IMG/VR virus record: IMGVR_UViG_3300042351_000809
DNA from: a virus
Length of the DNA: 64,000 nucleotides
Direction: 5' to 3' (one strand)
The position numbers were made by a program, and so were the translations under genes. The notes beneath the pieces are model-generated. The model was not told the DNA's origin, ran no database searches, and was given only the letters and a program-made list of their open reading frames with translations. Every line of letters starts with the position of its first letter. Positions within the stretch are counted from its first letter, which is position 1. Positions 1,210-35,056 of the stretch are shown here, in pieces.

Positions 1210-4200
1210 TTATTTGAATAATGGTATGTAAACTGTATCTGCGGGACTAAGCGCCCCAGTCTGTATTGGCATCCATCCAACGAAAGTTTTACCAGCAGTA
1301 CCTCCTGCGGCTCCTGCAAGCATAGCAGATTCTACTCTCAGGACTGGATTAAGACCATCACCTTTAATATGAAGCCTTGCGGCGACGGGAGAAGCCCCAA
1401 TTCCCACATTTCCATCATAATTAAAATTAACAGTATTTATCCACGCATTTGAAGAGTTGTAAGCCCAAAGAGCTAAATTTGTACCTGCGGCATTTGGTTG
1501 AAAATTGTAAGCTCTACTATTCGCTGCGTTTGCTAAATATAATGTAGAAGAGATTGAATCAGAGCCATTTTTTAGGACTCTCGCTCCAAGGTCTGCACCT
1601 CCTACTGTTAAAGTATTTGTAACTACAAAGCTGCCATCTGTTTTAAGTTGACTTGTTGACGATCTATAAATATTAGCCGCAGAATCTGCTCCAAAAGTTA
1701 TACCACTTGCAGCCGATGTTGAACCGGCACCGCCAACACCTAAGATTGTAGCTGAATTCGACAAGCCTATTCCAACGGTTCCTGCAAAGAATCTATTTCC
1801 GGGTTGATAAACTTTTATAACTTTCCATCCAGAAATACGACAAGCCCTTGTTCCAGTTCCTGCTGTGTAATTAAATAAAGCTAGAGGAGTCCAATATTTA
1901 GTACCTGCTTTAAATTGACCAATTGTATTCGAAAATCCACCAATATATCCAGTTACTTTAATCCAGCTAGTACCGGGATTATAATTACTCATTACCCAAT
2001 AACCATAAGAACCGGGATTGCCTCCTAAGTTGCCAAAATTTTGATCTAAGTCTTGACTTCCCATGTAGTGGCCTTGAGCCGTTCCTACATTTTGTATCCA
2101 GCACTCCATGTAGAAAACATCATTAGTATCTACTGGAATATATGGGAAACCAGAACCATATGGTCCCCCAACATCAACTGAACCATTAATATAAATACAA
2201 TAACCACCGGGAGCATCAGCCACTGCCTCCCAAGTGACATTAGAATTGTTAAAATATCTTTGAAGTTCAACTTGACTCCAAGTAGGATCTATTTCAAAGA
2301 CGGTTTCTCCTGCGGCATAATGTCCAACTGGATAAAGCTCAGTATTGTCAACCCTAGTATTTGTTCTTAAAATTCCCCCTCTAACATCTAATTTTTCAAA
2401 TGGACTTGTAGTGGCTATTCCAACATTTCCATTGCTTGCATCAATACGCATTCTTTCAGTTGAGCCACTAGCATAGAATCTTAAATGAGCCGCAGTAGCG
2501 CCGTTACTATTATAATTAACATACATTCCATCCGTATTAACGGTAGATTCATTTCTAATAACTCTTATATTAGCGTATATATCATTAGCATTAGATGACG
2601 TATTTAATACTGAGACTGCTCCAAACCTTAGAATATTTGCAGAAGCAATACTCATGTCTCCACCAGAAACAACCAATCGATAAGCAGGATTTGTAATTCC
2701 AATACCTACATTGCCTAAGTTATCAATTCTTACTCTTTCTGTATGCTCAAGATCAAATGCAGAAGTATGCAATGCAATACCAACTTTTCTATTATAACCA
2801 GCACCACCAGCAACATCTTCTTCTGAAACAGCATATATAGCAGCAGTTTTTGAATTAGTATTTGGACTATCAATACTACCATTTAATTTAATACCCCATT
2901 TTGCATTATTATTTGAATTAGAAGCTGGAACAGCATTAAATGGAGCAGTTAATATTAAGAAATCATTAACCCTACCAGCATTCATGTATGCATTAGCAGA
3001 TGCAGTATCTAATTGTATTCTAGAACCTGTAGGAGTAGTTTCTACAACATGTAATTTACTTGTAGGAGTAGATATATTTATACCAAAATTTCCACCATTC
3101 TTTAATGTAACTTGTTGAGATCCAGATCCTGCTGCGCCGAGTATTACATCTCCACCATTTGTATGTAGACGAACATCATTTGTTCCAGCCGCTCTTCTTA
3201 TTCCATGAGATTGATTGCCTAAGAAAAATCCTCCTTCTACGGAATTGCTATTTACATCAGACACAACAAAGCCTCTAACATCTAATTTTTGAGAAGGCGT
3301 TGATGCTCCAATTCCTACATCTCCAGCAGTAGTGATATTAAATCTATTTGCAACACCATTAGCATGAAATGCGAAACCTCCATTGCTACTATACAAATTC
3401 ATCGAATCTGCGCCACCCCAACTTGTACTGCTTCTATTTTTAAAGAACTGAGCATTACCATTGCTAGTGGTCCAAACTATATTTGTAAATAATGTATTAT
3501 TAGTACTACCTAAAATTAATCCAAATGCAGTTTGATTATTATAAAACCTAACTGCGTCTTGATTTGTGCCATATACATCTAATTTATATTGAGGATCTGT
3601 ACTACCTATGCCAACATTACCAGCACTAGTTATGCGCATCTTTTCTGTTGGCAAAGTGTTTGTAGCATTAGTTGCAAATACCAAAGATTGACAATTATCA
3701 CCTGCGCCTCCTAAGTCTATTCTTCCTCCAATGTAAGAATAAGCATTTGAATTAGTTGTTGTGTTAGTGAACGCAAGCACAGAAGCAGTATTAAAAACAT
3801 TAGATCCAGCGGTGCTGCGCATCCTTGTAATTATATTAACTGCGGCATTTGTTCCAGCCCCAACAATATCTAATTCGTATTCAGGATTATTTGTTCCTAA
3901 TCCTATCTTATTGTTAGCCAAAACAAAATCATTCGCACCATACTGACCCATTACAATTCTGTCATCTGCGAATACTTCAAGCACAGGCAAACCTGCGCTA
4001 TTATTTACAGACATTAATGAATCAGACAAGTCATCAACAACTGAGAAAAGTATTCCATTTGTACCATCTGCTCTAAGAACAGTTTCGCCAGCTACTGAAG
4101 AAACCACATGAAGCTTGCCGCTCGGAACATTTGTTCCTATTCCAACATAACCTCCTTGATTGAATCTAATTGCTGATAACCAAGCATTTCCTGCGACATT

Positions 4201-7200
4201 TCCTACATTAATATCAATAGGATTAGTAAAAGCATTAGAGTATAGATTACTATTAAATTGAATATAATCTAAAGACCTTATGCGCCCAGCCGCTAAAAAT
4301 CCACCATCTGTTCTAATAGAAGCACTTGAATCTCTATAAAGATTTGCAGAAGCATCTCCACCAAATGTTAGACCACTCGCAGCAGTTGTAGAACCAGCGT
4401 TACCAACAGACAATAAAGTAGTGGGTGTATTAGTTCCTATACCAACTAAACCAGCAGCAGTAATACGAATTCTTTCAGCGCCATTAGTTCCAATAGGCAT
4501 GACGTTTGCTGCATTTAGCACCAAATTACCACCCATTCTTATTTGAGTGTTTGCGCTTGGGCCTTGGATCGTACTCTCGTCTTGAGACAAGAGAATCGCA
4601 GCTACACCAGCAGCGTTACTTTGTACAATTTGTAATCTAGCTGTAGGATTAGTAATTCCTACACCTACATAACCCACAGCATCAATAACCATCCTTGTTA
4701 CTCCGCTTGTGCCAAGTGAAAGAGGCTGACCGAGTATTGTTTGTAATTTAACTTGATAGTTGGTTCCATCTCTTACAGTAGAAAACTCTCCTAAAGCAGT
4801 TCCCAATTCGCTCAATCTAAAACTTACTTTATTAGCAGCAGAAACTCCATTGCTTGCGATATTCGCTAGTATATTTTCGCCGCTATTTAAGTTAACTTGC
4901 AGTTTGTCTCCGGGATTACTTGTACCAATACCTACGTTTCTGGTGCTATTGATTACCATTGCTGGAGAAGCGGTAGGAATTCCAACGTCAATACCCGCTA
5001 CATTATTACTAGTAGCTGTCCAAAACCACAACTCTCCTCCATGCCAGTTAGCGTCAACTACTTGAGAACGTCTTCTACCGGCAATTACAGCAGTAGCTTG
5101 AGAGTAGTTTGATGAATTTGACTTGCTTCCAAATACTAATGCAGGAGAAAATGTATCATTTGTATTTGAATCATTGTGAAGAATGATTCCAAGTTGTTTT
5201 GGCTGAGTAGTAGCGGTATTATCAGAGTAGCTTACAACCAATGCTCTGGTCATAGAGTTACCTTGCAATTCTCCGGGATTAAAATTTAAATATCTAGCAT
5301 TTGGAATTGTTACATCTCCATTAACATGGAGCGCAAATTTAGGAGCAGTATTTGAAATACCAATATTAGCACCTGAACCTACATATAAATCAATACCTCC
5401 TATTGGATTCGTAAAGGAAATATTATTGGTTCCAATTCTCATCGCTGGACCATTATGTGTTCCAACTAGCCAAGTACTTCCTAATGAATTAAATAAAGCA
5501 GAACCTCCTAATACAGAAGCATTATTCCATCCTCCCGCAGTTGTATATGGCACATAGCTTAAACTATTTGCAGCATCACCTGCCATTAGTGATTTATTAT
5601 TATTTGCTGTTGCTCCTCCATATACTTGCAATGTCGCACCGGGATTATTTGTGCCTATGCCAACGTTTCCTATATTATTAATCCTTAATCTTTCAACACC
5701 GCTGGTATAAAATCTTGTATTACCATGTGTAAAACTAGCATTGTTTTTTGTTAATTGTCCTATTTCTAGAGACCCACCAGCTACACCAACAGTACCGGGA
5801 GTATAAGCTATTCCTACTTGACTATCCCAATCCCAATCTTTACTTATTAATATTGTGCTTGTGGCATTATTTCCCATCATCCACAAATTACCATCATTGT
5901 ATCCTAATAAATCAAACCCATTGTATCTTACGCGTTCATTTCCTTGCGTTAATTTAGCAACTACAGCATTAGATGTTCCAGCAGCTATTTCAAGTTTATA
6001 ACTAGGATTTGTTAATCCAATACCAACATTTCCACCGCTTGCAATATAAACAGTATTACCTCCTATATTATCAGTAAACTGAATACCATTTGCTCTACCA
6101 TATAATTGACCAGCAAAAGTATTAGTTCCACCATTAAACAAGGCAAATCCATAACCATTAGCAGGTCCAATTTGCCCAACTCCAGTAACTCTTAAAGCTC
6201 CAGCTACTTCTAATTTTACAACTGGACCTGTAGTGCCAATACCCACATTTCCATTTTCATTTGTATATATTTGTTTTGTATTTGCGGAAGTTGCAATTTG
6301 ATAAGTATAAGGCTGACTCCACGAACTTGATGATAAAACAAACTCATTAGGTGATGGACCGTTTACTGTTACAACAATATTATTAGCGTAACCAGTACCA
6401 TAACCACCATTTATAGCGCCATTAGTTTTTAAAACTAAAGATGGCGTTCCATATTGACTAGTGCTAGAATTAGATAATGCTAAAAGAGTAACGTCATCAT
6501 TACTGCAATTATAAGTGGCGCATTCTAAAAGTTTTACATTAATCCATGTTTCATTTGGTCGATAAGAAAGATGGCAACTAGCCAAAAATGTTCCTGCCCA
6601 AACGAGGTTTCCACCATTTACTGAAACTTGTATCAACTGACTAGAATAAGAAGCATTTCCTAATACTACTGTATATTGACCCCAGTTAGCATTAGTTGAT
6701 TTAGAAAGAGAAGAATAATAAGCAGAATTAGAATTATAAATTAATCCTGCGACGTTAAGAGATCCATCTGTTTTAATGGTATCTTCGGCAGCGCGATAAA
6801 GGTTTGCTTGAGGATCTGCTCCGAAAGTTATTCCACTTGCTGCGGTTGTTGAACCTGCGCCACCAACTCCAATAAGACTATCAGGACTTAACAATCCTAC
6901 TCCTAAGCGACCAGCGGCAGTAAGGATCATTTTAAATGTTTGATTTGGTCTAAAGAACAAATCATTATTACCAATTGTATCAATAAATCCTTGACCATCC
7001 CATCTGATTATTTCTCCACCAGAAATTCTAATACTTCCAGCAACATGGAGTCTATCAGAAGGATTTCTTATTCCTATACCAATGTTCCCACCAAGGGGAT
7101 TTAATAATAATGGCCTTGCAGTGCTGCTAAGAGTTCTTACTTGTTGCCATATACCATAAGGAGAAGTATCATCTGATCCAAATGCTATCTGACCATTTTC

Positions 7201-9030
7201 ACTACGAATAATTGCAGCAGCGGGTTTATTCCAAGTTAAAGAAGGAGGATATAAAACAGTATCTAAGACATGAAGCCTTCCGCTTGGATCATTAGTATTT
7301 ATTCCTAATCTTGCTTGGTCAGTTAAAATCATTAATGTCGCAGAATCAGCAGCATTTTGCCAAAATATTGATCCACTAACATTAGTATTATAGAAAAAAG
7401 TATTGGCTGAAGCGGTTGCAAACCAAGGCTTGAGGACTCCACCGGGAGTTCTAGTATAAGCACCATAAGAGTTATTTATACCAGCAATTATTGCACCATT
7501 TACATCTAATTTTTGAGAAGGAGTCGTTACTCCCATTCCAATATTACCATTGCTAATAATAGACATAGCAACTGTGCTATTATTAACAAGAAAATGCATA
7601 GGATCTGATGTGACCTGTCTAACATAAGCACCAGAACCAGCAAGAGAAGAACCTTCGTAATATCCTAAAAGCAAACCATAACCACCATTTCTATTCGCAG
7701 CAAACCATTTTTCTGTTCCCGGTCCAGTTGAACTTATTTGTATAGGTACATTACCATCAGACAATGATCCATTGCCTACAGAAAGGAGAGCTAATGGATT
7801 CGTTGTCCCTATTCCAATTTTACCATCATATTGAAAGTATGCAATTGTAGCTGCATCAGAAGAATTTTTTATTGATAAAGCAGACAAAGTGGCATCATGC
7901 ATTCCAAAACTCATGTTATATGATGAACCTCTATTGAATCTAATTCTAGATGCAGAGCTATATAAATCCAATAGTGCAGCAGGATTTGTTGTTCCTATTC
8001 CTATATTTCCATCAGAACCAATTACCATTTGCGGTGAAGCTTCAGGAGTTCCACCGCCATCAACTTTAGTATAAAAATATAATTTACCACCAGCAATTGT
8101 GCCATTAGTTCCACCTTGAATAGCCTTAATAGCAGCTATTTGTAAATGTGCATCTGTTTGTCCTCTTGCTCTTGTAAAATAAATGCCACCTACTCCAGAG
8201 CCGTCTCCTGAATTATTTGAGATTAGATTTATATCTGCTTCATTTGTTTCAGAATATAAGTCTAAAAATTTAGCACTAGGATTTGGTCTAAAATAAGTAG
8301 CATTGCTATTTATTAAAGATCCCGGATTACTTATTCCAATGCCAAGATCACCAGCAGCATCAATTCTGACTAACTCTGTATTGAATCGTGTAAATATATG
8401 TGCAGCAGAAGCTGCGGCAGTATTACCTGCATCTACCCTGTAAGTCATTACAGAGTTATTGTTTGATATACTATTAGTATATAATGCGTCATCTATAATT
8501 GTTATCGTAGTCGCGGCAGATCCAGAGACGAGCATGGAACCAGAGACATGCAGTTTAGATGCGGGATTTGTTACTCCTAGACCCACATCACCAGCAGCAG
8601 TTATACGCGCAACTTCAACAGGACTTGTAGCATTAGTTAAAAACCTAATTCCATCGCGTGATTGAGAAGCTATTTCTAAACCCAAATAAGCTGTGGCACT
8701 CGTCCTCGCAAGACGTATGTAAGCGGAAGCATTAGCAGTGCTATTATTTAATTGAAAATTATAACCGCAATAACCCACATTTGAAGTCGCATCTCCAGAT
8801 ACGTTGTATCCAAAAGCATTTGTATTTGTGCTAATCGTCCCTAAATTTAAATCAAATGGATAATTTGGACCAGTAGTCCCTACGCCAAAATAACCCGCAG
8901 GAGTAATGTAAAGTCTATTAGCATTATTTGTCTTCAATGACATTGCTTGGCTATCAGATGTCCTGATAACTAGCGTTCCTGCTGTTGAATTTACATCGTT
9001 TGACGCTGGTGTAATTACGATATCGCCCAT
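1210..9030 (-). CDS. Giant tail fibre / receptor-binding protein (2606 aa)
   Basis: Dozens of GNVGIGTTNP-x-KL(D/H)V beta-repeat units typical of phage tail fibres; G/N/S/T-rich. Confidence 0.85.
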   Translation of the reverse strand: MGDIVITPASNDVNSTAGTLVIRTSDSQAMSLKTNNANRLYITPAGYFGVGTTGPNYPFDLNLGTISTNTNAFGYNVSGDATSNVGYCGYNFQLNNSTANASAYIRLARTSATAYLGLEIASQSRDGIRFLTNATSPVEVARITAAGDVGLGVTNPASKLHVSGSMLVSGSAATTITIIDDALYTNSISNNNSVMTYRVDAGNTAAASAAHIFTRFNTELVRIDAAGDLGIGISNPGSLINSNATYFRPNPSAKFLDLYSETNEADINLISNNSGDGSGVGGIYFTRARGQTDAHLQIAAIKAIQGGTNGTIAGGKLYFYTKVDGGGTPEASPQMVIGSDGNIGIGTTNPAALLDLYSSASRIRFNRGSSYNMSFGMHDATLSALSIKNSSDAATIAYFQYDGKIGIGTTNPLALLSVGNGSLSDGNVPIQISSTGPGTEKWFAANRNGGYGLLLGYYEGSSLAGSGAYVRQVTSDPMHFLVNNSTVAMSIISNGNIGMGVTTPSQKLDVNGAIIAGINNSYGAYTRTPGGVLKPWFATASANTFFYNTNVSGSIFWQNAADSATLMILTDQARLGINTNDPSGRLHVLDTVLYPPSLTWNKPAAAIIRSENGQIAFGSDDTSPYGIWQQVRTLSSTARPLLLNPLGGNIGIGIRNPSDRLHVAGSIRISGGEIIRWDGQGFIDTIGNNDLFFRPNQTFKMILTAAGRLGVGLLSPDSLIGVGGAGSTTAASGITFGADPQANLYRAAEDTIKTDGSLNVAGLIYNSNSAYYSSLSKSTNANWGQYTVVLGNASYSSQLIQVSVNGGNLVWAGTFLASCHLSYRPNETWINVKLLECATYNCSNDDVTLLALSNSSTSQYGTPSLVLKTNGAINGGYGTGYANNIVVTVNGPSPNEFVLSSSSWSQPYTYQIATSANTKQIYTNENGNVGIGTTGPVVKLEVAGALRVTGVGQIGPANGYGFALFNGGTNTFAGQLYGRANGIQFTDNIGGNTVYIASGGNVGIGLTNPSYKLEIAAGTSNAVVAKLTQGNERVRYNGFDLLGYNDGNLWMMGNNATSTILISKDWDWDSQVGIAYTPGTVGVAGGSLEIGQLTKNNASFTHGNTRFYTSGVERLRINNIGNVGIGTNNPGATLQVYGGATANNNKSLMAGDAANSLSYVPYTTAGGWNNASVLGGSALFNSLGSTWLVGTHNGPAMRIGTNNISFTNPIGGIDLYVGSGANIGISNTAPKFALHVNGDVTIPNARYLNFNPGELQGNSMTRALVVSYSDNTATTQPKQLGIILHNDSNTNDTFSPALVFGSKSNSSNYSQATAVIAGRRRSQVVDANWHGGELWFWTATSNNVAGIDVGIPTASPAMVINSTRNVGIGTSNPGDKLQVNLNSGENILANIASNGVSAANKVSFRLSELGTALGEFSTVRDGTNYQVKLQTILGQPLSLGTSGVTRMVIDAVGYVGVGITNPTARLQIVQSNAAGVAAILLSQDESTIQGPSANTQIRMGGNLVLNAANVMPIGTNGAERIRITAAGLVGIGTNTPTTLLSVGNAGSTTAASGLTFGGDASANLYRDSSASIRTDGGFLAAGRIRSLDYIQFNSNLYSNAFTNPIDINVGNVAGNAWLSAIRFNQGGYVGIGTNVPSGKLHVVSSVAGETVLRADGTNGILFSVVDDLSDSLMSVNNSAGLPVLEVFADDRIVMGQYGANDFVLANNKIGLGTNNPEYELDIVGAGTNAAVNIITRMRSTAGSNVFNTASVLAFTNTTTNSNAYSYIGGRIDLGGAGDNCQSLVFATNATNTLPTEKMRITSAGNVGIGSTDPQYKLDVYGTNQDAVRFYNNQTAFGLILGSTNNTLFTNIVWTTSNGNAQFFKNRSSTSWGGADSMNLYSSNGGFAFHANGVANRFNITTAGDVGIGASTPSQKLDVRGFVVSDVNSNSVEGGFFLGNQSHGIRRAAGTNDVRLHTNGGDVILGAAGSGSQQVTLKNGGNFGINISTPTSKLHVVETTPTGSRIQLDTASANAYMNAGRVNDFLILTAPFNAVPASNSNNNAKWGIKLNGSIDSPNTNSKTAAIYAVSEEDVAGGAGYNRKVGIALHTSAFDLEHTERVRIDNLGNVGIGITNPAYRLVVSGGDMSIASANILRFGAVSVLNTSSNANDIYANIRVIRNESTVNTDGMYVNYNSNGATAAHLRFYASGSTERMRIDASNGNVGIATTSPFEKLDVRGGILRTNTRVDNTELYPVGHYAAGETVFEIDPTWSQVELQRYFNNSNVTWEAVADAPGGYCIYINGSVDVGGPYGSGFPYIPVDTNDVFYMECWIQNVGTAQGHYMGSQDLDQNFGNLGGNPGSYGYWVMSNYNPGTSWIKVTGYIGGFSNTIGQFKAGTKYWTPLALFNYTAGTGTRACRISGWKVIKVYQPGNRFFAGTVGIGLSNSATILGVGGAGSTSAASGITFGADSAANIYRSSTSQLKTDGSFVVTNTLTVGGADLGARVLKNGSDSISSTLYLANAANSRAYNFQPNAAGTNLALWAYNSSNAWINTVNFNYDGNVGIGASPVAARLHIKGDGLNPVLRVESAMLAGAAGGTAGKTFVGWMPIQTGALSPADTVYIPLFK

Positions 9031-9034
9031 ATTT

Positions 9035-12000
9035 TTATTCCATATCCCTTTCGATTACAAGTTTAGAAACATCCTTACGTTCTGCAAAAATTGTATAGTA
9101 ATAATTATATATATTATCATCACTATCTGTATAAATGTACACTTTGTTGTGCCCTATTTGATCTACACTATAGTTTCTTATTTTCCCGTCTTTACGCTTT
9201 CCTACTGCTGTTAAATTAACAGTAATAGAATCATCATGAACCAAACCTGACCAATAATGAGGTAGATCTATTTCATTGTTATTGTTTTGACCTCTGTAAT
9301 AAACGCCATTTTCTGGACCTTCTAGAGAGGCATAGGTTAGTCTCTTGCCAGAAACCGTTGGGTGAACTATATCGAAGCTCTTTGTTGTAGCAGCGAAGCT
9401 GCCATTAACTTGTAATTTATAAGAAGTACTTGTAATGCCTATTCCAATTGTTCCATTGGAGGCTATTCTCATTGCTTCTGTGTTTCCGACTCCAACCCCA
9501 AAAGCCATTCCATAAAGCGAGCCGCTTGGGTTAAATTCAATGTAAGCTTGATTTGTTACATCTGTACGCTTTTGAATCTTCGTGCTGGCAGTTGTCCAGT
9601 CTCCTCCTGTTGCAAAACGTGTTTCTACAAAATTAATTTGTGAAACGTTTCCATTATTGACAGCATAAGTAAATCCAGTAATAGTAGATCCAGCAGGAAT
9701 GCCGGGTAATAATCCTGCATTTATATTTAAGGTAGTAACAGTAACAGTATTAGTACTGAAATTACCATTGACTACTAAACTGCCATCTGTCTTTAATGTG
9801 TCTGTTGCGCTTCTATAAAGATTAGCTTCACTATCTCCGCCAAATCTTATTCCTTCTGTATTTGATGTAGCCCCTGCTGAACTTACATCTAACAGTCCAG
9901 AAATATAAGCGGTTCCAATTACTACTAATTTTTTATCAGGATTAGTCGTACCTATACCGACATTTCCATTTGCTGCGATGTAGAGACTTTCATTAGAAGT
10001 GTTTGTTCTAAGATACATGGCAGCGTTTGCTGCTAGTATTAGATTTCCATTACTAGTTGATTTTGTTAATATTGAAAATGAACCACCCGTTCTACCGCCA
10101 ACTATTTGAGCAGATCCAATCGTACCAATTTGGACCTCATCTCCATTAGAGCCAGTAACATGAAGTTTAGCAGAAGGATTAGTTAATCCAATTCCTACAT
10201 TTCCATTTGGGAAAACTGCTCTATTATTTGCTCCGCCTCCATCAGCATAAATTCCAAAAAACTCTGTAGCACTTGCACTATTATTAGCTACTGCAATTGT
10301 AAATGGATGAGTCGCATCATATATAGAAGAAATGTTTGCGAAGTAAGCTCCGGGACCACTTGCAGTTTGGAGCCTTAATTGAGTTCCATTTGAATGGATT
10401 GTTAAAACTCCAGTTGGAGCGATAGTGCCAATACCAACATTACCATCATTAGCTATTCTTACTTTTTCAGATGATGCAATTGAAAATGTAATCGCTGGAG
10501 ATACTGCCCCTGCATAATCTGTATTTAATCCTACAGTATTACTGCTTTCATTAGCATATATAGCTAATGCTGGATTAATTGTAGCTCCAATTCTTCTAAA
10601 ATATCCAATAGTACCATCAGATGTTTTTTGTACATCTAATTTATAACTTGGAGCCGTTGTTCCAATACCAACATTACCACCATTTGGATTTAATAGTAAT
10701 GGATAACCTAAAGATAAATCTACACGACTTGTAGATTGTAACCAATTTCCATTTCCGCCGTTGCCGCCAATATCTAATACTAAATTGGAATCACTATTTC
10801 TTAGTCTTAAGTTGACTCCTGTTGCAGTTGTACCTGCTGCGATTGGGAAGCTTCCAATTGGTCCTACAACGTCTAGTGCAACGACTGGTGAAGTAGTTCC
10901 AATTCCTATACCATTAGAGTTTAATGAAATAGTTCCTTTAGTTACAAATCCATAAGTAAGGTCTAATCTATTACCAGCATAATAAATTAATCTAGCATTA
11001 GAATCTCCTCCAACAGAATTTGTAAAGTCAATATAAGCTCCATTTGCTCCTAGTAATTGTAATTGAGCATAAGCGTCTGCGTAATTAAAGCCCATTGAAC
11101 CTACTTTATTTAATCCATATCTGCTTCCAGAAGAAGAATTATCTGAAACTACAAAAGGCCAGTTAGTATCAGAAGTTGAAGCATTTATTCCTAGTGAACC
11201 ATTTACATCTAGTTTAAATGAAGGATTAGTGTTGCCAATTCCAACTTTATTATTAACAAGAACAAAATCGCCGCTTCCATATTGCCCTGCGACAACTCTA
11301 TCGTCAGCGAATACTTCAAAAACTGGAAGACCAGCAGAATTATTAACCGACATCAAAGAGTCACTTAAATCATCAGTGACTGAGAAAAGAGTACCATTAG
11401 TTCCATCTGCTCTTAAAACGGTTTCTCCAGCGACAGAAGAAACTACATGAAGCTTTCCGGTTGGTTGTGTTGTACCTATTCCTACATAAGAGCCTCTTCC
11501 AATGTACAGAGCGGTTTCCCAAGCATTTTGAGCTACATTCCCAACAAATACACTCAAAGTTCCATAAGGTGCCCCTCCATAAATTTCACCAAGAGCAGTT
11601 TGTAAATACGAAGCAGCATATATATAAGAAGAAGACGACAAAGAAGCAGCAGTAAAAGCGGCATCTGTTTTAAGAAGATCTTCAGAAGCGCGATATAAAT
11701 TTACTTGAGCATCGCCTCCAAAAGTTAACCCACTTGCTGCTGATGTTGAACCGACACCACCAACTGATAAAAGAGTTGTTGGAATATTCGTACCTATTCC
11801 TAATTTACCATCAGATGTAATTCTTACTCTTTCTGTTTGTTGAGTATGAAATGTTGTATGATTCCAACTGCTTAAAATCATTCCGTCAATTACAGAATCA
11901 TATTTTAGATACTGAGAAGAAATATCATTAGCCCAACTAATAGCAGATCCACTTCCAGCAGCCATATAAATACTGCCGCTGACATTTAATTTTAATGGAG

Positions 12001-15000
12001 TAACATTTGTACCAATTCCAACATTTCCGTCAGCCTGAATTCTGACTCTTTCGTTAGCGGTAGAAACAGATTCAGTACCAGCAGTGTTATTTGTATAAAA
12101 TGTTAAAGCTCCTCTTCCGTAGTTATTAGTTCTTACAAAACCAACTGAACCTTTGACTCCATATACAGTAGATTCTCCTGCTGCAAAACCGATGCCTACT
12201 ATGTCGCCTTGATTAGGCGTACCCATATTAGTTAATTGAAGTTGATTAAATATTTGAGAAGTGCCATTTCCAGAATATATATGTAATGCAGATACAGGAT
12301 TCGTAGTTCCTATGCCAACATTACCATTGGAAGAAATGCGGAAGCGTTCTGAACCATTTGTTATTAATCCAAGATAATTTGAACCAGCACTTAAAGTAGT
12401 AACGCTGCCTAATAACGCTAGAACAGATGTCGTGCTGTATGCCAAATACGTTCCATTTGCTTGATTTAATCTTAAATAAGGCGCAGTAGTGTCTCCATAA
12501 ATATATCCACCATCTGTTAGCTTTATGTTTCCACTAACTTCTAATTTTTGTGCGGGATTTGTTGTTCCTATACCAACATTGCCATCGTAATTTATTCTTA
12601 CAGCTTCTTGTAATTCCGGCGTTCTACTTTGTTTGGCAGTGTAAAATCCCAAACCAGCATAGGCTCCATTAGAAAATTCTGATATACTTGCTATTTTACC
12701 AGCTACAATACCGCTAATAGAAAGATCTCTTTGTGCAAATTCCAATGCAGAATTAATTTCTCCAACAGCAAGAACATTTACTTTTCCGCCATTTATACGA
12801 ATAGTACCCGCTGTTTCGGATGCGCCCAAAACTTCAAAATTTACAGCAGGATTTGTAGTGCCTATTCCGACACCTGTGCCGTTGTCATAAATACTACCTG
12901 TAACCAATTGTTTAGTGCCGCTCCAGCGAGGGACGTAGTTGGATACTCCGACTCCAGAAAGGAAAGTGTTACCTGCGTAACCGCTCAGAGAGTTAATCTT
13001 CGTATCAAGGACCGAACCAGTTGCAGCTAGGTTAAGGATCGTCGCAAAGTTCGCGTTGGAATAACCGCTCAGAGAGTTGATCTTAGAATCAAGGGTTGAA
13101 CCTGTGGTAGCGAGATTTCCGCTTAAAGAAGTAATAGTTGGAGAAATAATTCCAACAGAAGCAATTAAATGACCAGTAGAAGAAGTAGAGACAGGAATAA
13201 CAGAGCTATAGTTTTGATTTCCTAAAGATCTAATTTTATTTACTCTTAATGCACCAGCAGAGATAGCTTGATTTGCTACAAAAGAAAATCTAAAATATCT
13301 TGAAATACCACCCGCCTGAATTGAATTAGCAACACTTAAAGCAATTGTTCCCCTTGTATTATTAGTAGGGAAATTTTGTTCTGTTATGCAATTGGTCCAA
13401 TTTACTAAGTCATTACTATTTTCAACATTTAATTTGAATCCCCACCAGTTTTGACTCCAATCAGTATTTAAAAGTATAAAATTTGGTCTTCTGTAATAAT
13501 CTGCTAAATCTACAACGAACCTTTTTCCAGAAATTCCAACAGAATATTCTGAAGAAGTTACTACATCTAAATAAGATGTCGCATTACCATCCAATAAATT
13601 ACGATATGACAAAGGTGCTGGATCTGCATACCAGTTATCACCAGAAAAATACTGACCGCTAAGAGTAGTTTTAAATCTTAATGGATCATTGACACCAATA
13701 GCATTAGATAGTGCATCTATTAATTCTAAATTGGATTGTGGAGCAAAAGCTGTGTTTGCGGTATACCCTAAATAAGCACTACCCGTATTCGAAGGATAAG
13801 CTAAATCTTCACCAACAATTATATAATCAGAAAATCTAGCGTTTCCACCGGAAACATCTAGCTTAACTGCGGGATTTGATAATCCTATTCCAACATTTCC
13901 ATTACTTTTTAATATAAAATTAGAAGTAGTATTTCTATAAAATTCTACAACATCGTTTGAACCATCATCTTGTTGAACATAAAATGCAGTACCAGCAGTA
14001 TTATTTTGAACTCTAGCTCTACCTCTTACGTCTAAAGCAGTAAGTGGGCCAGTTGTGCCTATACCAACATTACCAGCAAAAGTTCCATTTGAAGTGACTA
14101 CTAAAGAACCATCTGTTTTAATTGTGTCTTCAGCGGATCTATATAAATTTGCCTGAGCGTCTCCTCCAAAAGTTAATCCGCTTGCTGCTGAAGTTGATCC
14201 AAGTCCACCAAGAGAAAGAAGTGTTTGTGGATTTATAGTTCCAATTCCAACTTTGCCATCAGCCTTAAATACAGATATACCACTAGCACCAGCAGAAAGA
14301 ACAATAGAATTAGGATTAGCTGAAAGTAAAATCAAATCATCAGAAAGACCTCCGGTGACAGCAGATGCCAACCCGATGCTGGCTTCTGGAGTTTGTGCTT
14401 TATAAAATTCAATTTGAGAACCAGCATTATTTCCTGTACTCCCTACTAATCTGACTGTAGCAATGCTTGATACTGTACCGCTATTTATTATATGTAATTT
14501 TACGGTAGGATTAGTTGTTCCTATTCCAACATTTCCACCATTTGCTACAGTAACAGCATTAGCGTTAGTGGTTCTATTGAAAATAGCAAATCCATTTGTG
14601 CCATCTGCACCAGCGGACCATAAATTACTTGTACTGCTTTGGAAATCCATCCAAGTACCAGCAGTTGATCCAGAAATAAATACCAATTGGTTGTCGCTTG
14701 AAGTGATATGAAGTTTTCTAAGTGGATTAGTTGTGCCGATACCAACATTACCATTTGTATCTATTGTTAAACGTTGCGTATTTGATGTATAAAAATAAAG
14801 ATTATCAGCGGAATAACTTATTATACCGGCACTATTAGTGCTATTTGAAAATTTTATAGCAGCAAAAGCAGCAGAAGATGCAATATGTAATTTTTGTTCT
14901 GGAGCAGTTGTTCCTATACCAATATTACCATTATGGTAAATACGCATTCTTTCAGCATAAGTTTGGTCATTGAGTTGATTTGTATAAAATGCTAAACTTG

Positions 15001-16834
15001 TGCCTCTATTGTAACCCAAAGTATCTTCGCTGACAGCATAAATTGCTGAAGTTTTCCCTAAGCTATTTGAAAGAGAATCGACCGCTCCAATAAATTTAAT
15101 ACCCCATTTTGCTCCAATATTAGAAGTTGTCGCTGAATTAACGCCATAAGGAGCATTTAAAATTAATAAATCATTTGTAGAACCCGAATTCATCAAAGCA
15201 CTTTCAGAAGAAGTACCTAATTGAATTCTTGTTCCTGTTGCAGTAGTTTCTACTACATGTAATTTAGAAGTAGGCGAAGTCGTATTTATGCCTACGTCAC
15301 CACTAGGATCAATATAAACGGCATTAGTTAGACCATTTGTTTGAAAGTATAAATCTGAACCACCTAATATTAAACTTTGATAAGAGCTAGATAAAGTATT
15401 ATCTACGCCCTGTATATAAGTGCCAGCAGAGTTGAGATTAAATCTTACTCCTTTAGTTGCACCTGCCACAGAAAAAGCATATGTACTATCAGGACTTACA
15501 ACATGTAATCTACCATTTGGAGTAACTGTACCTATTCCTACATTTCCTCCAGAAGTTATACTCATTAAAGTACTTCTTCCGCCACCACCAACAGAAGTCT
15601 GAGTACTAAAATATAAACTTTGACCACTTGCCCAATCAAAATAATTTATTCCATTATTTCTAAACAAAGAAAGTCTAGAGTTATTTCCTTCGCTAATTAA
15701 TTCTCCGCTTGCTCTTACTGATCCAATTACATCTAATTTATAACCGGGGTTACCTATTCCAATTCCTGCGTTTCCACTAACTAATAAATTTGAGGTTATA
15801 TTGGTAGTGCCATTTATTTTTGAATCACCAAATACTTCAAAAGTATCAGAAGACTGAGAGTGCGCTCCAAATCTTACTAGATTTATGTATTGATTAGCAG
15901 TGCCTCCCGCTTGTTGTAAGTATAAAGGAATATTTGAGGAGCGATCTACTTTTATGAATCTATGTCTATATTGACCATTTGTATATGTATTATGATCGAA
16001 AACTAAACCAAAAACTCCAGTAGCATTTGGATATGAGTTTGTATCGGGAATTCCTGATTGGGCGGTAAATCCCATATTTCTTAAATGCAATTGACCCGAT
16101 GGAGTAGTTATGCCTATTCCAACATAGCCGCCATTTGGATTTAATAAAAGTGGATAAGTTGCAGATAAACTAGTTTCATCAGTTGATTGTATCCATCCAC
16201 CTAAACCTCCTCCTCTGATACCAAAATCTATTACTGCATTATCCGTGGTATTACTAATTCTAAATATACCGCTTTGAGTTGTGCCTACAGAAGCAGGATT
16301 ACCAACGGTTCCATCAACTTGAAATTTTTGAACTGGGTTAATGCCAATACCTAAACTACCATCTATTTTTAAAGCCCCCGCTGCTGATCTGTATAAATTT
16401 GCAGTAGAATCTCCACCAAAAGTCAAGCCACTTGCCGCAGAAGTAGAACCTGCACCACCAACAGACAAAAGGGTTGTTGGACTAATAGTACCTATTCCAA
16501 CATTTGTACCATTATCATATATACTTCCAGTAATTAATAACTTGCTCCCATTCCAACGAGGAACATAATTAGTAATACCATTTCCTGATAGGAAAGTATC
16601 ATTCGCATATCCACTTAAAGAATTAATTCTATTATTTAATAACGTTCCAGTAGCAGCAATCTGCCCACTTAAAGCAGCAAGATCAGCATTACTTGAATCT
16701 GCTTGCCACATTACGCCAGACGACGTAGCTGTTAGGACTTGGCCATTAGCTCCTATACTATTCGAACGGTCAAATATAAAACCAGATATCTGAACGCCCG
16801 TAGCGAATAATTCATCTATAGCAAATTGCGCCAT
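9035..16834 (-). CDS. Giant tail fibre / receptor-binding protein (2599 aa)
   Basis: Same GNVGIGT repeats; C-terminal KSFDIVHP...LEGPENGVYYRG domain common at ends of aquatic phage fibres. Confidence 0.85.
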   Translation of the reverse strand: MAQFAIDELFATGVQISGFIFDRSNSIGANGQVLTATSSGVMWQADSSNADLAALSGQIAATGTLLNNRINSLSGYANDTFLSGNGITNYVPRWNGSKLLITGSIYDNGTNVGIGTISPTTLLSVGGAGSTSAASGLTFGGDSTANLYRSAAGALKIDGSLGIGINPVQKFQVDGTVGNPASVGTTQSGIFRISNTTDNAVIDFGIRGGGLGGWIQSTDETSLSATYPLLLNPNGGYVGIGITTPSGQLHLRNMGFTAQSGIPDTNSYPNATGVFGLVFDHNTYTNGQYRHRFIKVDRSSNIPLYLQQAGGTANQYINLVRFGAHSQSSDTFEVFGDSKINGTTNITSNLLVSGNAGIGIGNPGYKLDVIGSVRASGELISEGNNSRLSLFRNNGINYFDWASGQSLYFSTQTSVGGGGRSTLMSITSGGNVGIGTVTPNGRLHVVSPDSTYAFSVAGATKGVRFNLNSAGTYIQGVDNTLSSSYQSLILGGSDLYFQTNGLTNAVYIDPSGDVGINTTSPTSKLHVVETTATGTRIQLGTSSESALMNSGSTNDLLILNAPYGVNSATTSNIGAKWGIKFIGAVDSLSNSLGKTSAIYAVSEDTLGYNRGTSLAFYTNQLNDQTYAERMRIYHNGNIGIGTTAPEQKLHIASSAAFAAIKFSNSTNSAGIISYSADNLYFYTSNTQRLTIDTNGNVGIGTTNPLRKLHITSSDNQLVFISGSTAGTWMDFQSSTSNLWSAGADGTNGFAIFNRTTNANAVTVANGGNVGIGTTNPTVKLHIINSGTVSSIATVRLVGSTGNNAGSQIEFYKAQTPEASIGLASAVTGGLSDDLILLSANPNSIVLSAGASGISVFKADGKVGIGTINPQTLLSLGGLGSTSAASGLTFGGDAQANLYRSAEDTIKTDGSLVVTSNGTFAGNVGIGTTGPLTALDVRGRARVQNNTAGTAFYVQQDDGSNDVVEFYRNTTSNFILKSNGNVGIGLSNPAVKLDVSGGNARFSDYIIVGEDLAYPSNTGSAYLGYTANTAFAPQSNLELIDALSNAIGVNDPLRFKTTLSGQYFSGDNWYADPAPLSYRNLLDGNATSYLDVVTSSEYSVGISGKRFVVDLADYYRRPNFILLNTDWSQNWWGFKLNVENSNDLVNWTNCITEQNFPTNNTRGTIALSVANSIQAGGISRYFRFSFVANQAISAGALRVNKIRSLGNQNYSSVIPVSTSSTGHLIASVGIISPTITSLSGNLATTGSTLDSKINSLSGYSNANFATILNLAATGSVLDTKINSLSGYAGNTFLSGVGVSNYVPRWSGTKQLVTGSIYDNGTGVGIGTTNPAVNFEVLGASETAGTIRINGGKVNVLAVGEINSALEFAQRDLSISGIVAGKIASISEFSNGAYAGLGFYTAKQSRTPELQEAVRINYDGNVGIGTTNPAQKLEVSGNIKLTDGGYIYGDTTAPYLRLNQANGTYLAYSTTSVLALLGSVTTLSAGSNYLGLITNGSERFRISSNGNVGIGTTNPVSALHIYSGNGTSQIFNQLQLTNMGTPNQGDIVGIGFAAGESTVYGVKGSVGFVRTNNYGRGALTFYTNNTAGTESVSTANERVRIQADGNVGIGTNVTPLKLNVSGSIYMAAGSGSAISWANDISSQYLKYDSVIDGMILSSWNHTTFHTQQTERVRITSDGKLGIGTNIPTTLLSVGGVGSTSAASGLTFGGDAQVNLYRASEDLLKTDAAFTAASLSSSSYIYAASYLQTALGEIYGGAPYGTLSVFVGNVAQNAWETALYIGRGSYVGIGTTQPTGKLHVVSSVAGETVLRADGTNGTLFSVTDDLSDSLMSVNNSAGLPVFEVFADDRVVAGQYGSGDFVLVNNKVGIGNTNPSFKLDVNGSLGINASTSDTNWPFVVSDNSSSGSRYGLNKVGSMGFNYADAYAQLQLLGANGAYIDFTNSVGGDSNARLIYYAGNRLDLTYGFVTKGTISLNSNGIGIGTTSPVVALDVVGPIGSFPIAAGTTATGVNLRLRNSDSNLVLDIGGNGGNGNWLQSTSRVDLSLGYPLLLNPNGGNVGIGTTAPSYKLDVQKTSDGTIGYFRRIGATINPALAIYANESSNTVGLNTDYAGAVSPAITFSIASSEKVRIANDGNVGIGTIAPTGVLTIHSNGTQLRLQTASGPGAYFANISSIYDATHPFTIAVANNSASATEFFGIYADGGGANNRAVFPNGNVGIGLTNPSAKLHVTGSNGDEVQIGTIGSAQIVGGRTGGSFSILTKSTSNGNLILAANAAMYLRTNTSNESLYIAANGNVGIGTTNPDKKLVVIGTAYISGLLDVSSAGATSNTEGIRFGGDSEANLYRSATDTLKTDGSLVVNGNFSTNTVTVTTLNINAGLLPGIPAGSTITGFTYAVNNGNVSQINFVETRFATGGDWTTASTKIQKRTDVTNQAYIEFNPSGSLYGMAFGVGVGNTEAMRIASNGTIGIGITSTSYKLQVNGSFAATTKSFDIVHPTVSGKRLTYASLEGPENGVYYRGQNNNNEIDLPHYWSGLVHDDSITVNLTAVGKRKDGKIRNYSVDQIGHNKVYIYTDSDDNIYNYYYTIFAERKDVSKLVIERDME

Positions 16835-26327: not shown

Positions 26328-28169
26328 TTAAATTAAAATTGGTGTAAATCCCGCAGCTACTATTTTATTTTCAGTAGTCATGATATCATTATAGCATTTA
26401 GAACCCCATTTCGCTAACATTAAAGCCGTGTAATTATCTTTTCTTGCTCTATTAGGGGAATTGGAGCGTTTTAAGTGTTGAGGCAAATCGAAATTAACAG
26501 ATCCACGACTACTAGTAGTAAATTCTACAAGTGAGCATTGCTTTTTAGTGTTGTAAACTAATAAATCTTGATGCTCTATAAGGTCTAGCTTATTCCAATC
26601 TTTAATGTCTTCTATAAATATAAGGTCTTCAGGTATTCTCTTGTTTATTTCTTCATTAAAGAAAGATTCATTGGCTACAGTTTTGGATGCGAACCAAATT
26701 TTCTTATAGTCAATAGCTGCTTGCAGATTTTCGTTACCTCTTCGAATAAATGTAGTTGTAAATACCTGAGTTACTGCTATTTGTTTATTTTCTAAGTTGT
26801 ATTGACTCTTGGCTTTCTGAACCATCTTTGTATATTCAATTCCCTCAAGATCAGAATCGAAGTTAATAAACTTTATCTTCTCAGATTCCGAGTTTACATA
26901 TTGAGATTCATTATAAGTGTCAAAGAAAATATCGGCACCGGCATTATCGCAAATGATATAAACAATATTAAAGCTAGTCATTAAGTAATGAAAGTATTTA
27001 ATATGACTATTTAAGCTTCCAAGACCCGCGTATGCATGAACAAGAACATCATTCTTATTTTCTCGGTCTATTTCTAAAATTGCCATTGCAAAATAGTCAG
27101 CATTTGGACTGTCGCTCATGTTAGGGTCCATTGCTAAGATATATTGCTTGCCAGAATCTCCTCTGATTTGAGAATGCGGCCTTTCTTCAAACTTAAGAGT
27201 ACATTCTTCCATCTTCTTCATGCTGAAATAAGAATCGCTACCGTCAGTAAACTGAGCGCAGTATTCTCTCAAGAAAGAAGCATGAGAAGAGCCACCGTTT
27301 TGAGCTTCTTCTGTAATAGAAGAGTCAATCATCTCTGGTGGCAAAGATTCATAGCTTAATTGTGATACAAAGTAAGTCGCACTTGTTGGTTCTTTAGAAT
27401 AAATGTTGTCACACCATTCTTTATAAGTTTTATAAAGGTTTTCAAAAGTATAAGAAGCAGAGGAAAGGGCAATCATCTTGGAAGTATTTTTAAATTCCAT
27501 GCGGTCAGCTTCTGTCATTGCGCCTTGGCGAATTAATTCATCTTCTTGTTCACGAATGCTAATACGTTCTTTAATGTCTTGAGGGACAATCAAGAATGGC
27601 ATTAATACATTTTTAATTATGTCTTCTGGCAACAATAAAAACTCGTCTAGTACAAGAACATTAGCACGGAAACCACGAATCTTTTCGCCACTTAGAGGAA
27701 TAGCTTTAATAGAGCCTTCGTTTATTGACCAATCATATTCGTCATTGCGTTTTGATTTTGCACCAAATGCTTGCATCAATAAGTCTGCACCTTTAGACTC
27801 AGTAATTTTTTCTATTGAATTAAAAATGCTTCTTGCTGTTCTGAATGTAGGACCAGCAATTAGAATTTTACTCTTAGGCTCAAAGATACATTGTAAAAAA
27901 CAAAATACCGCAGCAGAGAAAGATTTGGATGCACCACGACCCCATACGTTCATGCAGAAATTGCGGTTCAACATTCCTTTGATTACGATCTCTTGATAAG
28001 GCCATAATTTTATACCAGAAATTAGCTCTGTAGTTATGCCTATATTTGAACGCAAAAATTTAGCCAAAGTTATTTTGGCTTCTTTGTCTTCAAGAGTGTC
28101 TTTTAATTTAGAATATTCATCATTTAAGTTAGGAATTATTCTATTATACTTTTCTGGGGTATACCACAT
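26328..28169 (-). CDS. terL: Terminase large subunit
   Basis: LWPYQ Q-motif, Walker A GRGASKS, IRGFRANVLVLDE Walker B, FLREYCAQF, RNase H-like AMDP and KDNYTAL. Confidence 0.9.
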   Translation of the reverse strand: MWYTPEKYNRIIPNLNDEYSKLKDTLEDKEAKITLAKFLRSNIGITTELISGIKLWPYQEIVIKGMLNRNFCMNVWGRGASKSFSAAVFCFLQCIFEPKSKILIAGPTFRTARSIFNSIEKITESKGADLLMQAFGAKSKRNDEYDWSINEGSIKAIPLSGEKIRGFRANVLVLDEFLLLPEDIIKNVLMPFLIVPQDIKERISIREQEDELIRQGAMTEADRMEFKNTSKMIALSSASYTFENLYKTYKEWCDNIYSKEPTSATYFVSQLSYESLPPEMIDSSITEEAQNGGSSHASFLREYCAQFTDGSDSYFSMKKMEECTLKFEERPHSQIRGDSGKQYILAMDPNMSDSPNADYFAMAILEIDRENKNDVLVHAYAGLGSLNSHIKYFHYLMTSFNIVYIICDNAGADIFFDTYNESQYVNSESEKIKFINFDSDLEGIEYTKMVQKAKSQYNLENKQIAVTQVFTTTFIRRGNENLQAAIDYKKIWFASKTVANESFFNEEINKRIPEDLIFIEDIKDWNKLDLIEHQDLLVYNTKKQCSLVEFTTSSRGSVNFDLPQHLKRSNSPNRARKDNYTALMLAKWGSKCYNDIMTTENKIVAAGFTPILI

Positions 28170-33616: not shown

Positions 33617-34057
33617 TCAGTCGGCCAGATTGGCGACGTTTTCCAACGCGAAGCAAAGGAACTGCGGTTCCCCCTTGTCGGGGCTATAGTCGCGAATGGT
33701 GGCGAGTTCCTCGGGGGTCGCTTCGCGGCCATCCACAAGGTAACGGGTGACCCGCTTGGCGGACGTAGGAACGGCGGCCAGATACAAGGCCCCGCTTTCC
33801 TTGTGCATGACCAACCCATCCTTGACCCAAGTGAACCACGGGGCCTTGCCAGCGGGGGCCTCGCCTGTGCGGGCCTCTAAAACGTTGGAGTATGTCTCAG
33901 GCCCCGCCACGGTGACCGTGATGCGGTGGTCGCGGGTCACGCGACCCAAGAGCGGGTTCAGGGGAACGCCAGCGCGGCCCCCCTTGTTCATTTTGTGTTC
34001 GCCAGTCAAGAGGATGGTGGCGAGGCGACCGGCGCGGATGGTGGTGGTGTCAATCAT
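33617..34057 (-). CDS. Hypothetical early protein, paralog A (GC-rich)
   Basis: 146 aa; colinear similarity to 35323-35760. Confidence 0.8.
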   Translation of the reverse strand: MIDTTTIRAGRLATILLTGEHKMNKGGRAGVPLNPLLGRVTRDHRITVTVAGPETYSNVLEARTGEAPAGKAPWFTWVKDGLVMHKESGALYLAAVPTSAKRVTRYLVDGREATPEELATIRDYSPDKGEPQFLCFALENVANLAD

Positions 34058-34280
34058 GATGCGTTGCTTTCTTAAAACGTCGCCGTGATTGGCGACAAGG
34101 AAAGACTCTCACGGGTCGCTTCCGTTGTCACCTAGAAAGTGAAAGAAAAGTGAAAAACCTTTCAGGGTCATGCATAGGGTCCGAAGCGCGTCAAGCCAAA
34201 AAGTGGAAAAAGATTGTCAAGGAAAAAGAGTTGCAAGAATCGGGGACTCCGTTTTCTGCAACTCTCCTTTGGAAAGAGAC

Positions 34281-34319
34281 TTGGCACGGTCCCTGCTGTC
34301 CTAGCAAGAGCCGTGCCAG
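34281..34319. promoter_or_regulatory. Convergent pair of sigma54-consensus (-24/-12) sites
   Basis: TTGGCACGGTCCCTGCT (+) and CTGGCACGGCTCTTGCT (-), GG-N10-GC spacing. Confidence 0.7.
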
Positions 34320-34331
34320 TCTAGCCTTGGG

Positions 34332-34589
34332 TCACTCTGCGAAAAGATCGGCCTTGGCGCGAGAGTGAGCCATGATGGCATGAGTCTTGCTCACATCCGT
34401 GGGGATGAAGGAAAGGCGGTAGGTCATGAGGTTCAGAGCGTCCTTGATTTCCTGCAACTGCCGCTTTCGACTAGCGACCAAGGAAGTCCTGTCTTCAAGG
34501 AACACGATGTCGGTTTCCAAGGCGACCATTCCGCCAATCAAGGCGGCGCGGACTTTGGTGGCTTGCTCTGCGGTGATGATGTTTTCCAT
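34332..34589 (-). CDS. Hypothetical early protein (MENIITAEQ...)
   Basis: Internal ATG downstream of the unit's promoter and leader hairpin. Confidence 0.65.
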   Translation of the reverse strand: MENIITAEQATKVRAALIGGMVALETDIVFLEDRTSLVASRKRQLQEIKDALNLMTYRLSFIPTDVSKTHAIMAHSRAKADLFAE

Positions 34590-34699
34590 GTTGTGTTTTA
34601 TAGTGTCGCCGTCATTGACGACGGGAAGACTTTCGCACGGATGCATTTTGATTGTCACCAACTTTCTCAAAGAATCTTTGAGTACCCAATCGAAAGCCC

Positions 34700-34884
34700 A
34701 GCACGTTTCATGCCAAGTCTAGGTTGGCATGCTCTTTGCTCCCCAGCATAGACTATGCCAAGTCCGCACTCCAGAGAGTTGCGAGAGTTGGGGTCTCCTT
34801 TTCTTGCAACTCTCGGTTTTCCGGTTGGCATGGCACTTGCTCCCCAGCACGAATCGTGCCAAGTCGGTTGGCATGGAACTTGCT
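34700..34884. promoter_or_regulatory. Six sigma54-consensus sites arranged symmetrically around 39-bp element copy 2
   Basis: TTGGCAYR-N4-(T/G/A)TGCT at 34700(-), 34724(+), 34745(-), 34825(+), 34846(-), 34868(+). Confidence 0.75.
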
Positions 34885-35056
34885 TCCCCTTATACTACTA
34901 TAAGCCATTTCTCACTAATGTTAGTGATAAATCCTTATATATATACAAAAAATCCCCTGTACTAGTACAGAGGATCTGAGGGTATTTGATATTTATCTAT
35001 TTAATGTTTAATGTTAGAGAAACAACCAAATAGGAATATCGCAATCAATAGTATAA

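Follow-up and report, generated by a model that had tools for sequence, protein, structure and literature searches.

The sigma54 form of RNA polymerase is regarded as a chromosomal, enhancer-locked system that serves stress, nitrogen, and appendage genes, and we know of no phage that builds on it. A 64-kb stretch of freshwater phage DNA (IMG/VR record IMGVR_UViG_3300042351_000809, 64,000 nt, hereafter the window) nevertheless carries a dense cluster of sigma54-type sites, arranged face to face and back to back, which raises the question of what such sites do in a phage genome. A preliminary description of this DNA had read eight of them as a possible decoy for RpoN and its polymerase.

The window derives from an uncultured tailed phage and encodes the large terminase (26328–28169, minus strand), PhoH, a GP88-family protein, and seven tRNAs. 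The CheckV values of relatives, together with a 171-kb contig that carries an identical gene (P0004), suggest a genome size of approximately 160–170 kb. Searches of isolated phages returned no DNA or protein match to the window, and Rfam recognized tRNAs alone. The cyanobacterial HIP1 element, considered as a clue to the host, does not occur in the window. The tRNA set prefers A/T-ending codons. The gene starts of the window are almost devoid of Shine-Dalgarno sequences, and TATAAA-like boxes lie 6–7 nt before the ATG of several small genes, suggesting by their position that the mRNAs may be leaderless. Two adjoining giant genes (2606 and 2599 aa) occupy the minus strand at 1210–16834.

Nine sigma54-type sites within 600 bp

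The pattern TGGCAY-N6-TGCT was matched exactly nine times in the 64-kb window, with 0.18 matches expected, and all nine matches lie inside 34282–34884. Shuffled versions of the window contained at most two matches, and none of the 100 shuffles reached nine. Both strands were also scanned with a matrix built from the 18 E. coli sigma54 promoters marked as experimentally confirmed in Table 1 of PMC4591121. With this matrix, which represents E. coli only, the nine sites took nine of the top ten ranks among 128,000 window positions. Their scores range from 14.6 to 21.2 bits, and the 18 confirmed promoters, each left out in turn, score 9.2–21.7 bits with a median of 15.7. All nine sites show GG-N10-GC within the pattern TGGCAC-N5-TTGC(W). 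The shuffles and the matrix scan rule out chance or base composition as the source of the sites, so that the comparison of an RpoN matrix with a shuffled background, proposed in the preliminary description, had a positive outcome. The eight 17-mers reported there were all recovered with their coordinates and strands; the total of eight has to be raised to nine, one plus-strand site at 34375–34391 having been overlooked.

The predicted starts given here follow the convention of 19 bp downstream from the motif centre (PMC4591121). At the left of the region, the site TTGGCACGGTCCCTGCT (34281–34297, plus strand) scores 19.2 bits, and its predicted start at about 34308 is antisense to gene A (34332–34589, minus strand), which lies in GC-rich DNA and encodes an 85-aa helical protein. 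It converges with CTGGCACGGCTCTTGCT (34303–34319, minus strand), which has the top score of the window (21.2 bits) and a predicted start at about 34292, directed into the first copy of a 39-nt dyad. The ninth site, ATGGCATGAGTCTTGCT (34375–34391, plus strand; 14.6 bits), whose exact match TGGCATGAGTCTTGCT spans 34376–34391, lies within gene A in antisense orientation; it is kept in one relative (L024) and occurs with a different spacer in another (L035). The other six sites form the main array. The first, TTGGCATGAAACGTGCT (34700–34716, minus strand), has a predicted start at about 34689, which is 100 nt upstream of the gene A ATG, and shows the highest conservation of any array site. The next, TTGGCATGCTCTTTGCT (34724–34740, plus strand), stands back to back with it and converges with TTGGCATAGTCTATGCT (34745–34761, minus strand; predicted start about 34734). 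Beyond the second dyad copy follow TTGGCATGGCACTTGCT (34825–34841, plus strand; predicted start about 34852) and TTGGCACGATTCGTGCT (34846–34862, minus strand), whose predicted start at about 34835 would lead through that dyad toward gene A. The rightmost site, TTGGCATGGAACTTGCT (34868–34884, plus strand), was found with the E. coli matrix as well as by the exact pattern. Its TTGGCA, together with TATACT 17 nt downstream (34891–34896), also reads as a sigma70-type promoter with 10 of 12 matching positions (34868–34896), which points rightward into an AT-rich stretch without genes.

The sites had been described as mostly facing no gene. This holds for the five plus-strand sites, which have no sense gene before them, but not for the four minus-strand sites, which face gene A (34589..34332) and, via the first dyad, gene B (34057..33617).

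Sequence preferences and spread of the motif

Analysis of 93 distinct sites from the clade of the window yielded the logo TTGGCAYR-N3-Y-N-TGCT. A relaxed search that fixed only TGGCA-N7-TGC was applied to 97 loci (among the matches listed) without DNA similarity to the window, and it recovered 543 distinct sites, whereas about 25 would be expected in the 828 kb searched. At the free positions, these 543 sites follow E. coli closely: a pyrimidine succeeds TGGCA in 94% (95% in E. coli) and a purine comes next in 91% (88%), T precedes TGC in 71% (56%), and A or T follows GC in 89% (95%). The base after GC is a near-invariant T in the phage sites, whereas E. coli prefers A. The two half-elements are 6 nt apart, which is the spacing of sigma54 and far too short for the −35 and −10 elements of sigma70-family factors.

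The convergent pair occurs in at least 118 stretches of IMG/VR, against about one expected by our own estimate. Among the matches listed, 97 lack DNA similarity to the window; the GC content of these ranges from 32 to 66%. Single-linkage clustering by shared proteins placed 97 of the 119 sources (among the matches listed, the window included) in one group, which spans 32–62% GC without drift of the motif; 33 of the sources listed share a protein directly with the window. Several array-bearing stretches encode GP88, DUF932, or sugar-modifying proteins, families that are also present in the window or its genome. In a sample of Pseudomonadota, by comparison, the convergent pair was found in 1 of 401 genomes. 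Given this spread in viral contigs and its near absence from the bacterial genomes, the array design characterizes a broad group of phages and is not a customary feature of sigma54 regulation in bacteria. The single positive genome (G262, contigs 52 and 203; loci L211 and L212) contains two near-identical copies, each at about 60–130 nt from a contig end, and these may belong to a repeated or mobile element.

An hsp20 unit, found by its DNA pattern in the phage family of the window (L082:955–1400, and also L081 and L083–L087), contains a single site in a different setting. The unit consists of a CTGTCAC-N-GTGACAG dyad, two GTCTCA repeats, one sigma54-type site, the ATG, and a terminator. The site ends exactly 14 nt before the ATG and has three spacer variants in seven contigs, and the perfect dyad lies about 90 bp upstream of the predicted hsp20 start. 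No sigma70 −10 element was seen before hsp20 in the unit. This is the layout to be expected if a nearly leaderless mRNA were made from a functional sigma54 promoter, and the phage appears to use sigma54 productively at hsp20. The gene is absent from the fragments of five long relatives, and a genome scan for the combination of dyad and site returned five unrelated chance matches and no lead to a host.

Neither the window nor about 1.9 Mb of related loci yielded a sigma54 (rpoN) gene or an ORF with a GAFTGA motif or an RpoN box, and the activator domain PF00158 had no match in five related records. As no activator of the phage was found, activation would rely on the host.

The main alternative to sigma54 itself is a DNA-binding protein of this phage lineage, such as a repressor, partition protein, or initiator, that binds sites whose likeness to sigma54 elements is coincidental. 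The one group that holds most array-bearing sources could keep a single specificity, and each 17-mer has partial internal symmetry (GCA-N7-TGC, with R7/Y11). The sites form larger palindromes and phased arrays, as operators or iterons do, an AT-rich stretch lies by the array, as at replication origins, and the near-invariant T after GC is not the base that E. coli prefers. However, the 6-nt distance between the half-elements is exactly that of sigma54 and does not suit sigma70-type factors, the preferences of sigma54 are seen at all free positions, and the site is clearly asymmetric (TTGGCA versus TGCT). The lone site at promoter distance from hsp20 and the constancy of the motif from 32 to 62% GC likewise speak against a coincidence, which we regard as unlikely. 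Since the spacing, the logo, the free-position preferences, and the hsp20 site agree, the assignment of the nine 17-mers to sigma54 (RpoN) −24/−12 elements is well supported at the sequence level, and the sigma54 consensus recognized in the preliminary description gains support from the E. coli matrix, from the free positions, from conservation confined to the cores, and from the promoter-like hsp20 site. It is likely that sigma54 binds the sites of the array.

Array geometry, cassette borders, and possible functions

The six sites of the main array alternate in the order −, +, − and +, −, + around the second copy of the 39-nt dyad (AGAGTTGC...GCAACTCT, 34775–34813), with site centres at −86, −62, and −41 and at +39, +60, and +82 relative to the dyad centre. 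This bears out the dyad symmetry noted earlier, and the gap of 4–5 bp between convergent TGCT and AGCA boxes was likewise confirmed in the window. The back-to-back TGCCA and TGGCA boxes are 7–9 bp apart in the window. Across relatives, convergent boxes are separated by 3–5 bp, occasionally 8, and back-to-back boxes by 7 or 9 bp. The predicted starts of convergent partners lie within each other, for example at 34751 (plus strand) and 34734 (minus strand). From the short gaps and the known extent of closed complexes, we infer that neighbouring sites cannot all be filled simultaneously, and an overlapping pair probably holds one holoenzyme. Comparison of the spacers of convergent partners revealed 2.33 of 7 positions alike, versus 3.03 of 7 for random site pairs, and 99.7% of the resamples equalled or exceeded the observed value. 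Partner spacers that are less alike than those of random pairs rule out an RNA hairpin or cruciform formed by the two partners; the pairs are not selected for such structures and, if anything, perfect palindromes are avoided.

The array is located in an island of about 50% GC (33.3–34.9 kb) within a genome of about 36% GC. Read along the minus strand, the right part of the region comprises the intrinsic terminator of the upstream minus-strand cassette (34977–34950), which marks the right end, three sites, the dyad (34813–34775), three further sites, a leader, and gene A. The left part continues with gene A (34589–34332), the convergent pair (34319–34281), dyad copy 1 (34227–34265), gene B (P0002, 33617–34057, minus strand, 146 aa), and a terminator. 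On the minus strand, a T run and TTGACA come after copy 1. The interval between gene A and the array contains a TTGTCACC box and a perfect dyad, CTCAAAG-AAT-CTTTGAG (34652–34682), as candidate regulator sites, and the array borders on an AT-rich stretch. The AT-rich gene P0004 (35323–35760), just upstream, has a GC-rich paralogue in gene B, which gives the island the appearance of a module acquired from a relative of higher GC content. The two paralogues (50% and 36% GC) encode 145–146 aa and lie 1.3 kb apart; the P0004 family is restricted to this phage lineage and adjoins arrays in 33 loci. Genes A and B and their AT-rich counterparts have no Pfam or PHROGs family match, and the AlphaFold model of P0002 (pLDDT 72.7) has no PDB match.

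Between 34227 and 45152, the window holds 15 copies of the 39-nt dyad (AGAGTTGC-N23-GCAACTCT, with the centre GGGCACCCC or GGGGTCTCC) at cassette borders, most of them followed by a T run and TTGAC. No covariation was detected among the 15 copies, the outer stem being invariant. Sigma54-type sites accompany only two of these dyad-marked borders (copies 1 and 2), and the others have sigma70-like signals. The sites are therefore not required for a border as such.

A search with the terminase identified 368 related IMG/VR stretches, of which a subset of loci was fetched. Clusters of 3 to 11 sites were present in 17 fetched loci with a terminase identity of 95–99%, and two relatives with 66% terminase identity contained none in 75 kb each. 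Alignment of 11 arrays showed no variation in TGGCA, TGCT, or the short linkers but free variation in the spacers; the check for conservation suggested in the preliminary description thus found the sites in at least 17 relatives, with constant cores and variable spacers. Each arm holds two to four sites among relatives, with local duplications. The central hairpin keeps its place, and its stem differs in some relatives (ATAGTTTTC/GAAAACTAT instead of AGAGTTGC/GCAACTCT) yet remains self-complementary. The types of left and right flank occur in different combinations around the conserved array among phages with 95–99% identical terminase, which places the array at a mosaic junction. A module with a single site also recurs in close relatives (L003:2100–2300, L005:1180–1380, L008:1750–2500, and, on the reverse strand, L024:1300–2300). 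It consists of a TTGTCAC-N6-GTAACAA or TGTCA-N8-TGACA dyad, 7–9 nt, a sigma54-type site, 4–7 nt, and the 39-nt dyad hairpin, and it is oriented toward the 3' end of an opposing cassette. Dyads of the TGTCAC type thus stand beside sites in relatives as well as upstream of the hsp20 site.

In related phages, alternating arrays recur at successive cassette borders (L189, L144, L163, L113, and L184). In more distant phages, a longer hairpin, with the core GTAAGTCC...GGACTTAC within GGGGCCCC arms, replaces the 39-nt dyad between sigma54-type sites in L189:1620–3860, L144:1960–3540, L152, L155, and L108. In L113:6288–6371, in L119, and in flanks of L098, L135, and L188, some convergent or neighbouring sites abut or are separated by long C runs followed by G runs of about 25 each, which may be homopolymer hairpins or assembly artefacts. 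The idea that arrays near contig ends mark genome termini was dropped, as the ends of loci are not always ends of contigs and the array of the window is internal. A convergent partner lies within 10 nt of 58% of the 714 distinct sites. Sites without such a partner have a strong hairpin downstream in 27% of cases, compared with 17% for the upstream side and 7% for shuffled sequence, and the downstream hairpin mostly begins 0–3 nt past the site. A co-oriented ORF start within 100 nt downstream was found for 17% of about 640 sites, versus 19% in the reverse direction, with crude ORF calling. Lacking an orientation bias toward co-oriented ORF starts, most sites do not look like ordinary mRNA promoters, although some may be, such as the hsp20 site and the leftward sites that precede gene A. 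The view that most sites are unlikely to be productive promoters is accordingly supported, by this lack of bias as well as by the interleaved starts of convergent partners.

What has been observed is the motif itself, together with its agreement with sigma54 preferences, the conservation and geometry of the sites, and their spread. We think that these features are best explained by a boundary module acting in cis, in which sigma54 and a hairpin form a poised bidirectional promoter and insulator, and we give this reading a probability of about 40%. Alternating sigma54-type sites around a hairpin dyad would constitute a conserved border module between cassettes of small genes. The host sigma54 holoenzyme would occupy the module in the form of silent closed complexes, roughly one for each overlapping pair, and the unactivated complex beside the hairpin terminator could block or occlude transcription that crosses the border. 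Once an enhancer-binding ATPase is active, the same sites may fire both ways, leftward into genes A and B and rightward into antisense or non-coding RNA. A cis role is favoured by the recurrence of the arrays at cassette borders, by their fixed place beside the hairpin, and by their indifference to orientation; the missing orientation bias fits an insulator and not a promoter role.

The decoy envisaged in the preliminary description would instead act in trans: as the phage DNA multiplies, the arrays would soak up host sigma54 or its holoenzyme, so that the host programmes for Psp, RNA repair, pili, and flagella are shut or core polymerase is freed for other sigma factors. Several observations agree with such a sink. 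The near-consensus sites reach the scores of the strongest E. coli binders, their orientation is unbiased toward genes, no activator was found encoded nearby, and convergent pairs are strongly enriched in viral contigs, with a single occurrence among the Pseudomonadota genomes. Closed complexes of sigma54 are silent without the ATPase, which would suit a sink. In E. coli, moreover, most sigma54 sites are bound in an inactive state (PMC4591121). On the other hand, the packing at 3–5 bp (convergent) and 7–9 bp (back to back) probably cuts the capacity of the arrays, and a sink has no need for sites 0–3 nt or 13–14 nt from a hairpin or for the recurrence at every border seen in L189 and L144. The phage family also seemingly needs active sigma54 for hsp20. 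We rank the decoy below the cis role because of the border recurrence by hairpins, the presumably smaller number of holoenzymes than of sites, and the use of sigma54 at hsp20, and we consider it improbable, though it would be the more remarkable result if true.

A further reading, which we hold with comparably low confidence, takes the sigma54 closed complex as a device of the phage DNA, in which the −12/−11 melting nucleus is shared between sites or pre-formed. Near-consensus sites would for this purpose face each other or stand directly against an extrudable hairpin. The device would then either trap sigma54 and its polymerase, so that sigma54-dependent responses of the host are silenced while the phage DNA multiplies, or allow sigma54 promoters to fire without an enhancer-binding ATPase.

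Least probable of all, and in our judgement very unlikely, is that the arrays are linker DNA for homologous recombination, with PeSL-like shuffling of cassettes, or part of an origin, sigma54 binding being secondary: flank types do switch at array edges among phages with 95–99% identical terminase, the arms do vary from two to four sites through local duplications, and the array does lie in a GC-rich island that holds a xenologous copy of a neighbouring gene, but recombination needs long identical stretches, no more than 9 of 17 positions are fixed here, the spacers of partners are kept different, and nothing indicates an initiator gene beside the arrays. Fixed cores with unlike spacers point to selection for protein contacts and not for homology.

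Comparison with known systems

Use of sigma54 by phages through arrays of sites appears to be previously undescribed. In a literature search, neither arrays of sigma54 sites in phages nor sigma54 decoys were encountered, which is not proof of novelty, and neither were convergent sigma54 partners 3–5 bp apart or arrays of three to four alternating sites; we know of no example of either arrangement. Should sigma54 bind the sites, an entire group of environmental phages would be using or subverting that form of the polymerase by means of dense symmetric arrays, and the motif would mark the hosts as rpoN-bearing. It could then be asked whether closed complexes serve as programmable insulators, whether DNA alone can titrate a sigma factor, and whether a site next to a hairpin can bypass the ATPase. 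The arrays are short and self-contained and hence easily testable.

The datA locus is a cluster of high-affinity sites that titrates DnaA. Both datA and the phage array would be site clusters for a limiting host factor, whereas datA is chromosomal and acts in replication control. To our knowledge, no phage-borne sink for a sigma factor is known.

The E. coli promoters glnAp2, pspA, hypA/hycA, and zraP/zraS share with the phage sites the −24/−12 GG-N10-GC, the flank preferences, and comparable scores (PMC4591121). The hycA/hypA and zraP/zraS promoters are also oppositely oriented pairs around shared enhancer DNA, like the phage pairs, but these divergent pairs are about 130–150 bp apart (motif centres, Table 1 of PMC4591121), whereas the phage back-to-back sites are 7–9 bp apart. 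Unlike these promoters, the phage arrays have no activator gene and no canonical enhancer identified. Inactive, often intragenic sigma54 sites of E. coli are bound without an obvious gene (PMC4591121), and the phage site at 34375–34391 is likewise intragenic and antisense. The E. coli sites are scattered singles at about one per 20–30 kb (PMC4591121), in contrast to nine sites in 600 bp, symmetric and conserved, in the phage.

By analogy, the closest known design is that of the PeSL of T4-type phages, units of promoter and stem-loop at the borders of small-gene cassettes in variable regions (PMC2839356, PMC4122927). The phage arrays resemble them in combining promoter-like sites with a stem-loop at small-gene cassette borders and in coinciding with mosaic junctions between close relatives. 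A PeSL, however, carries a sigma70 early promoter in a single orientation (PMC2839356, PMC4122927), and in the window only 34868–34896 also reads as sigma70-like. The arrays described here are of sigma54 type, multiplied, and alternating in orientation, and they belong to an unrelated phage lineage.
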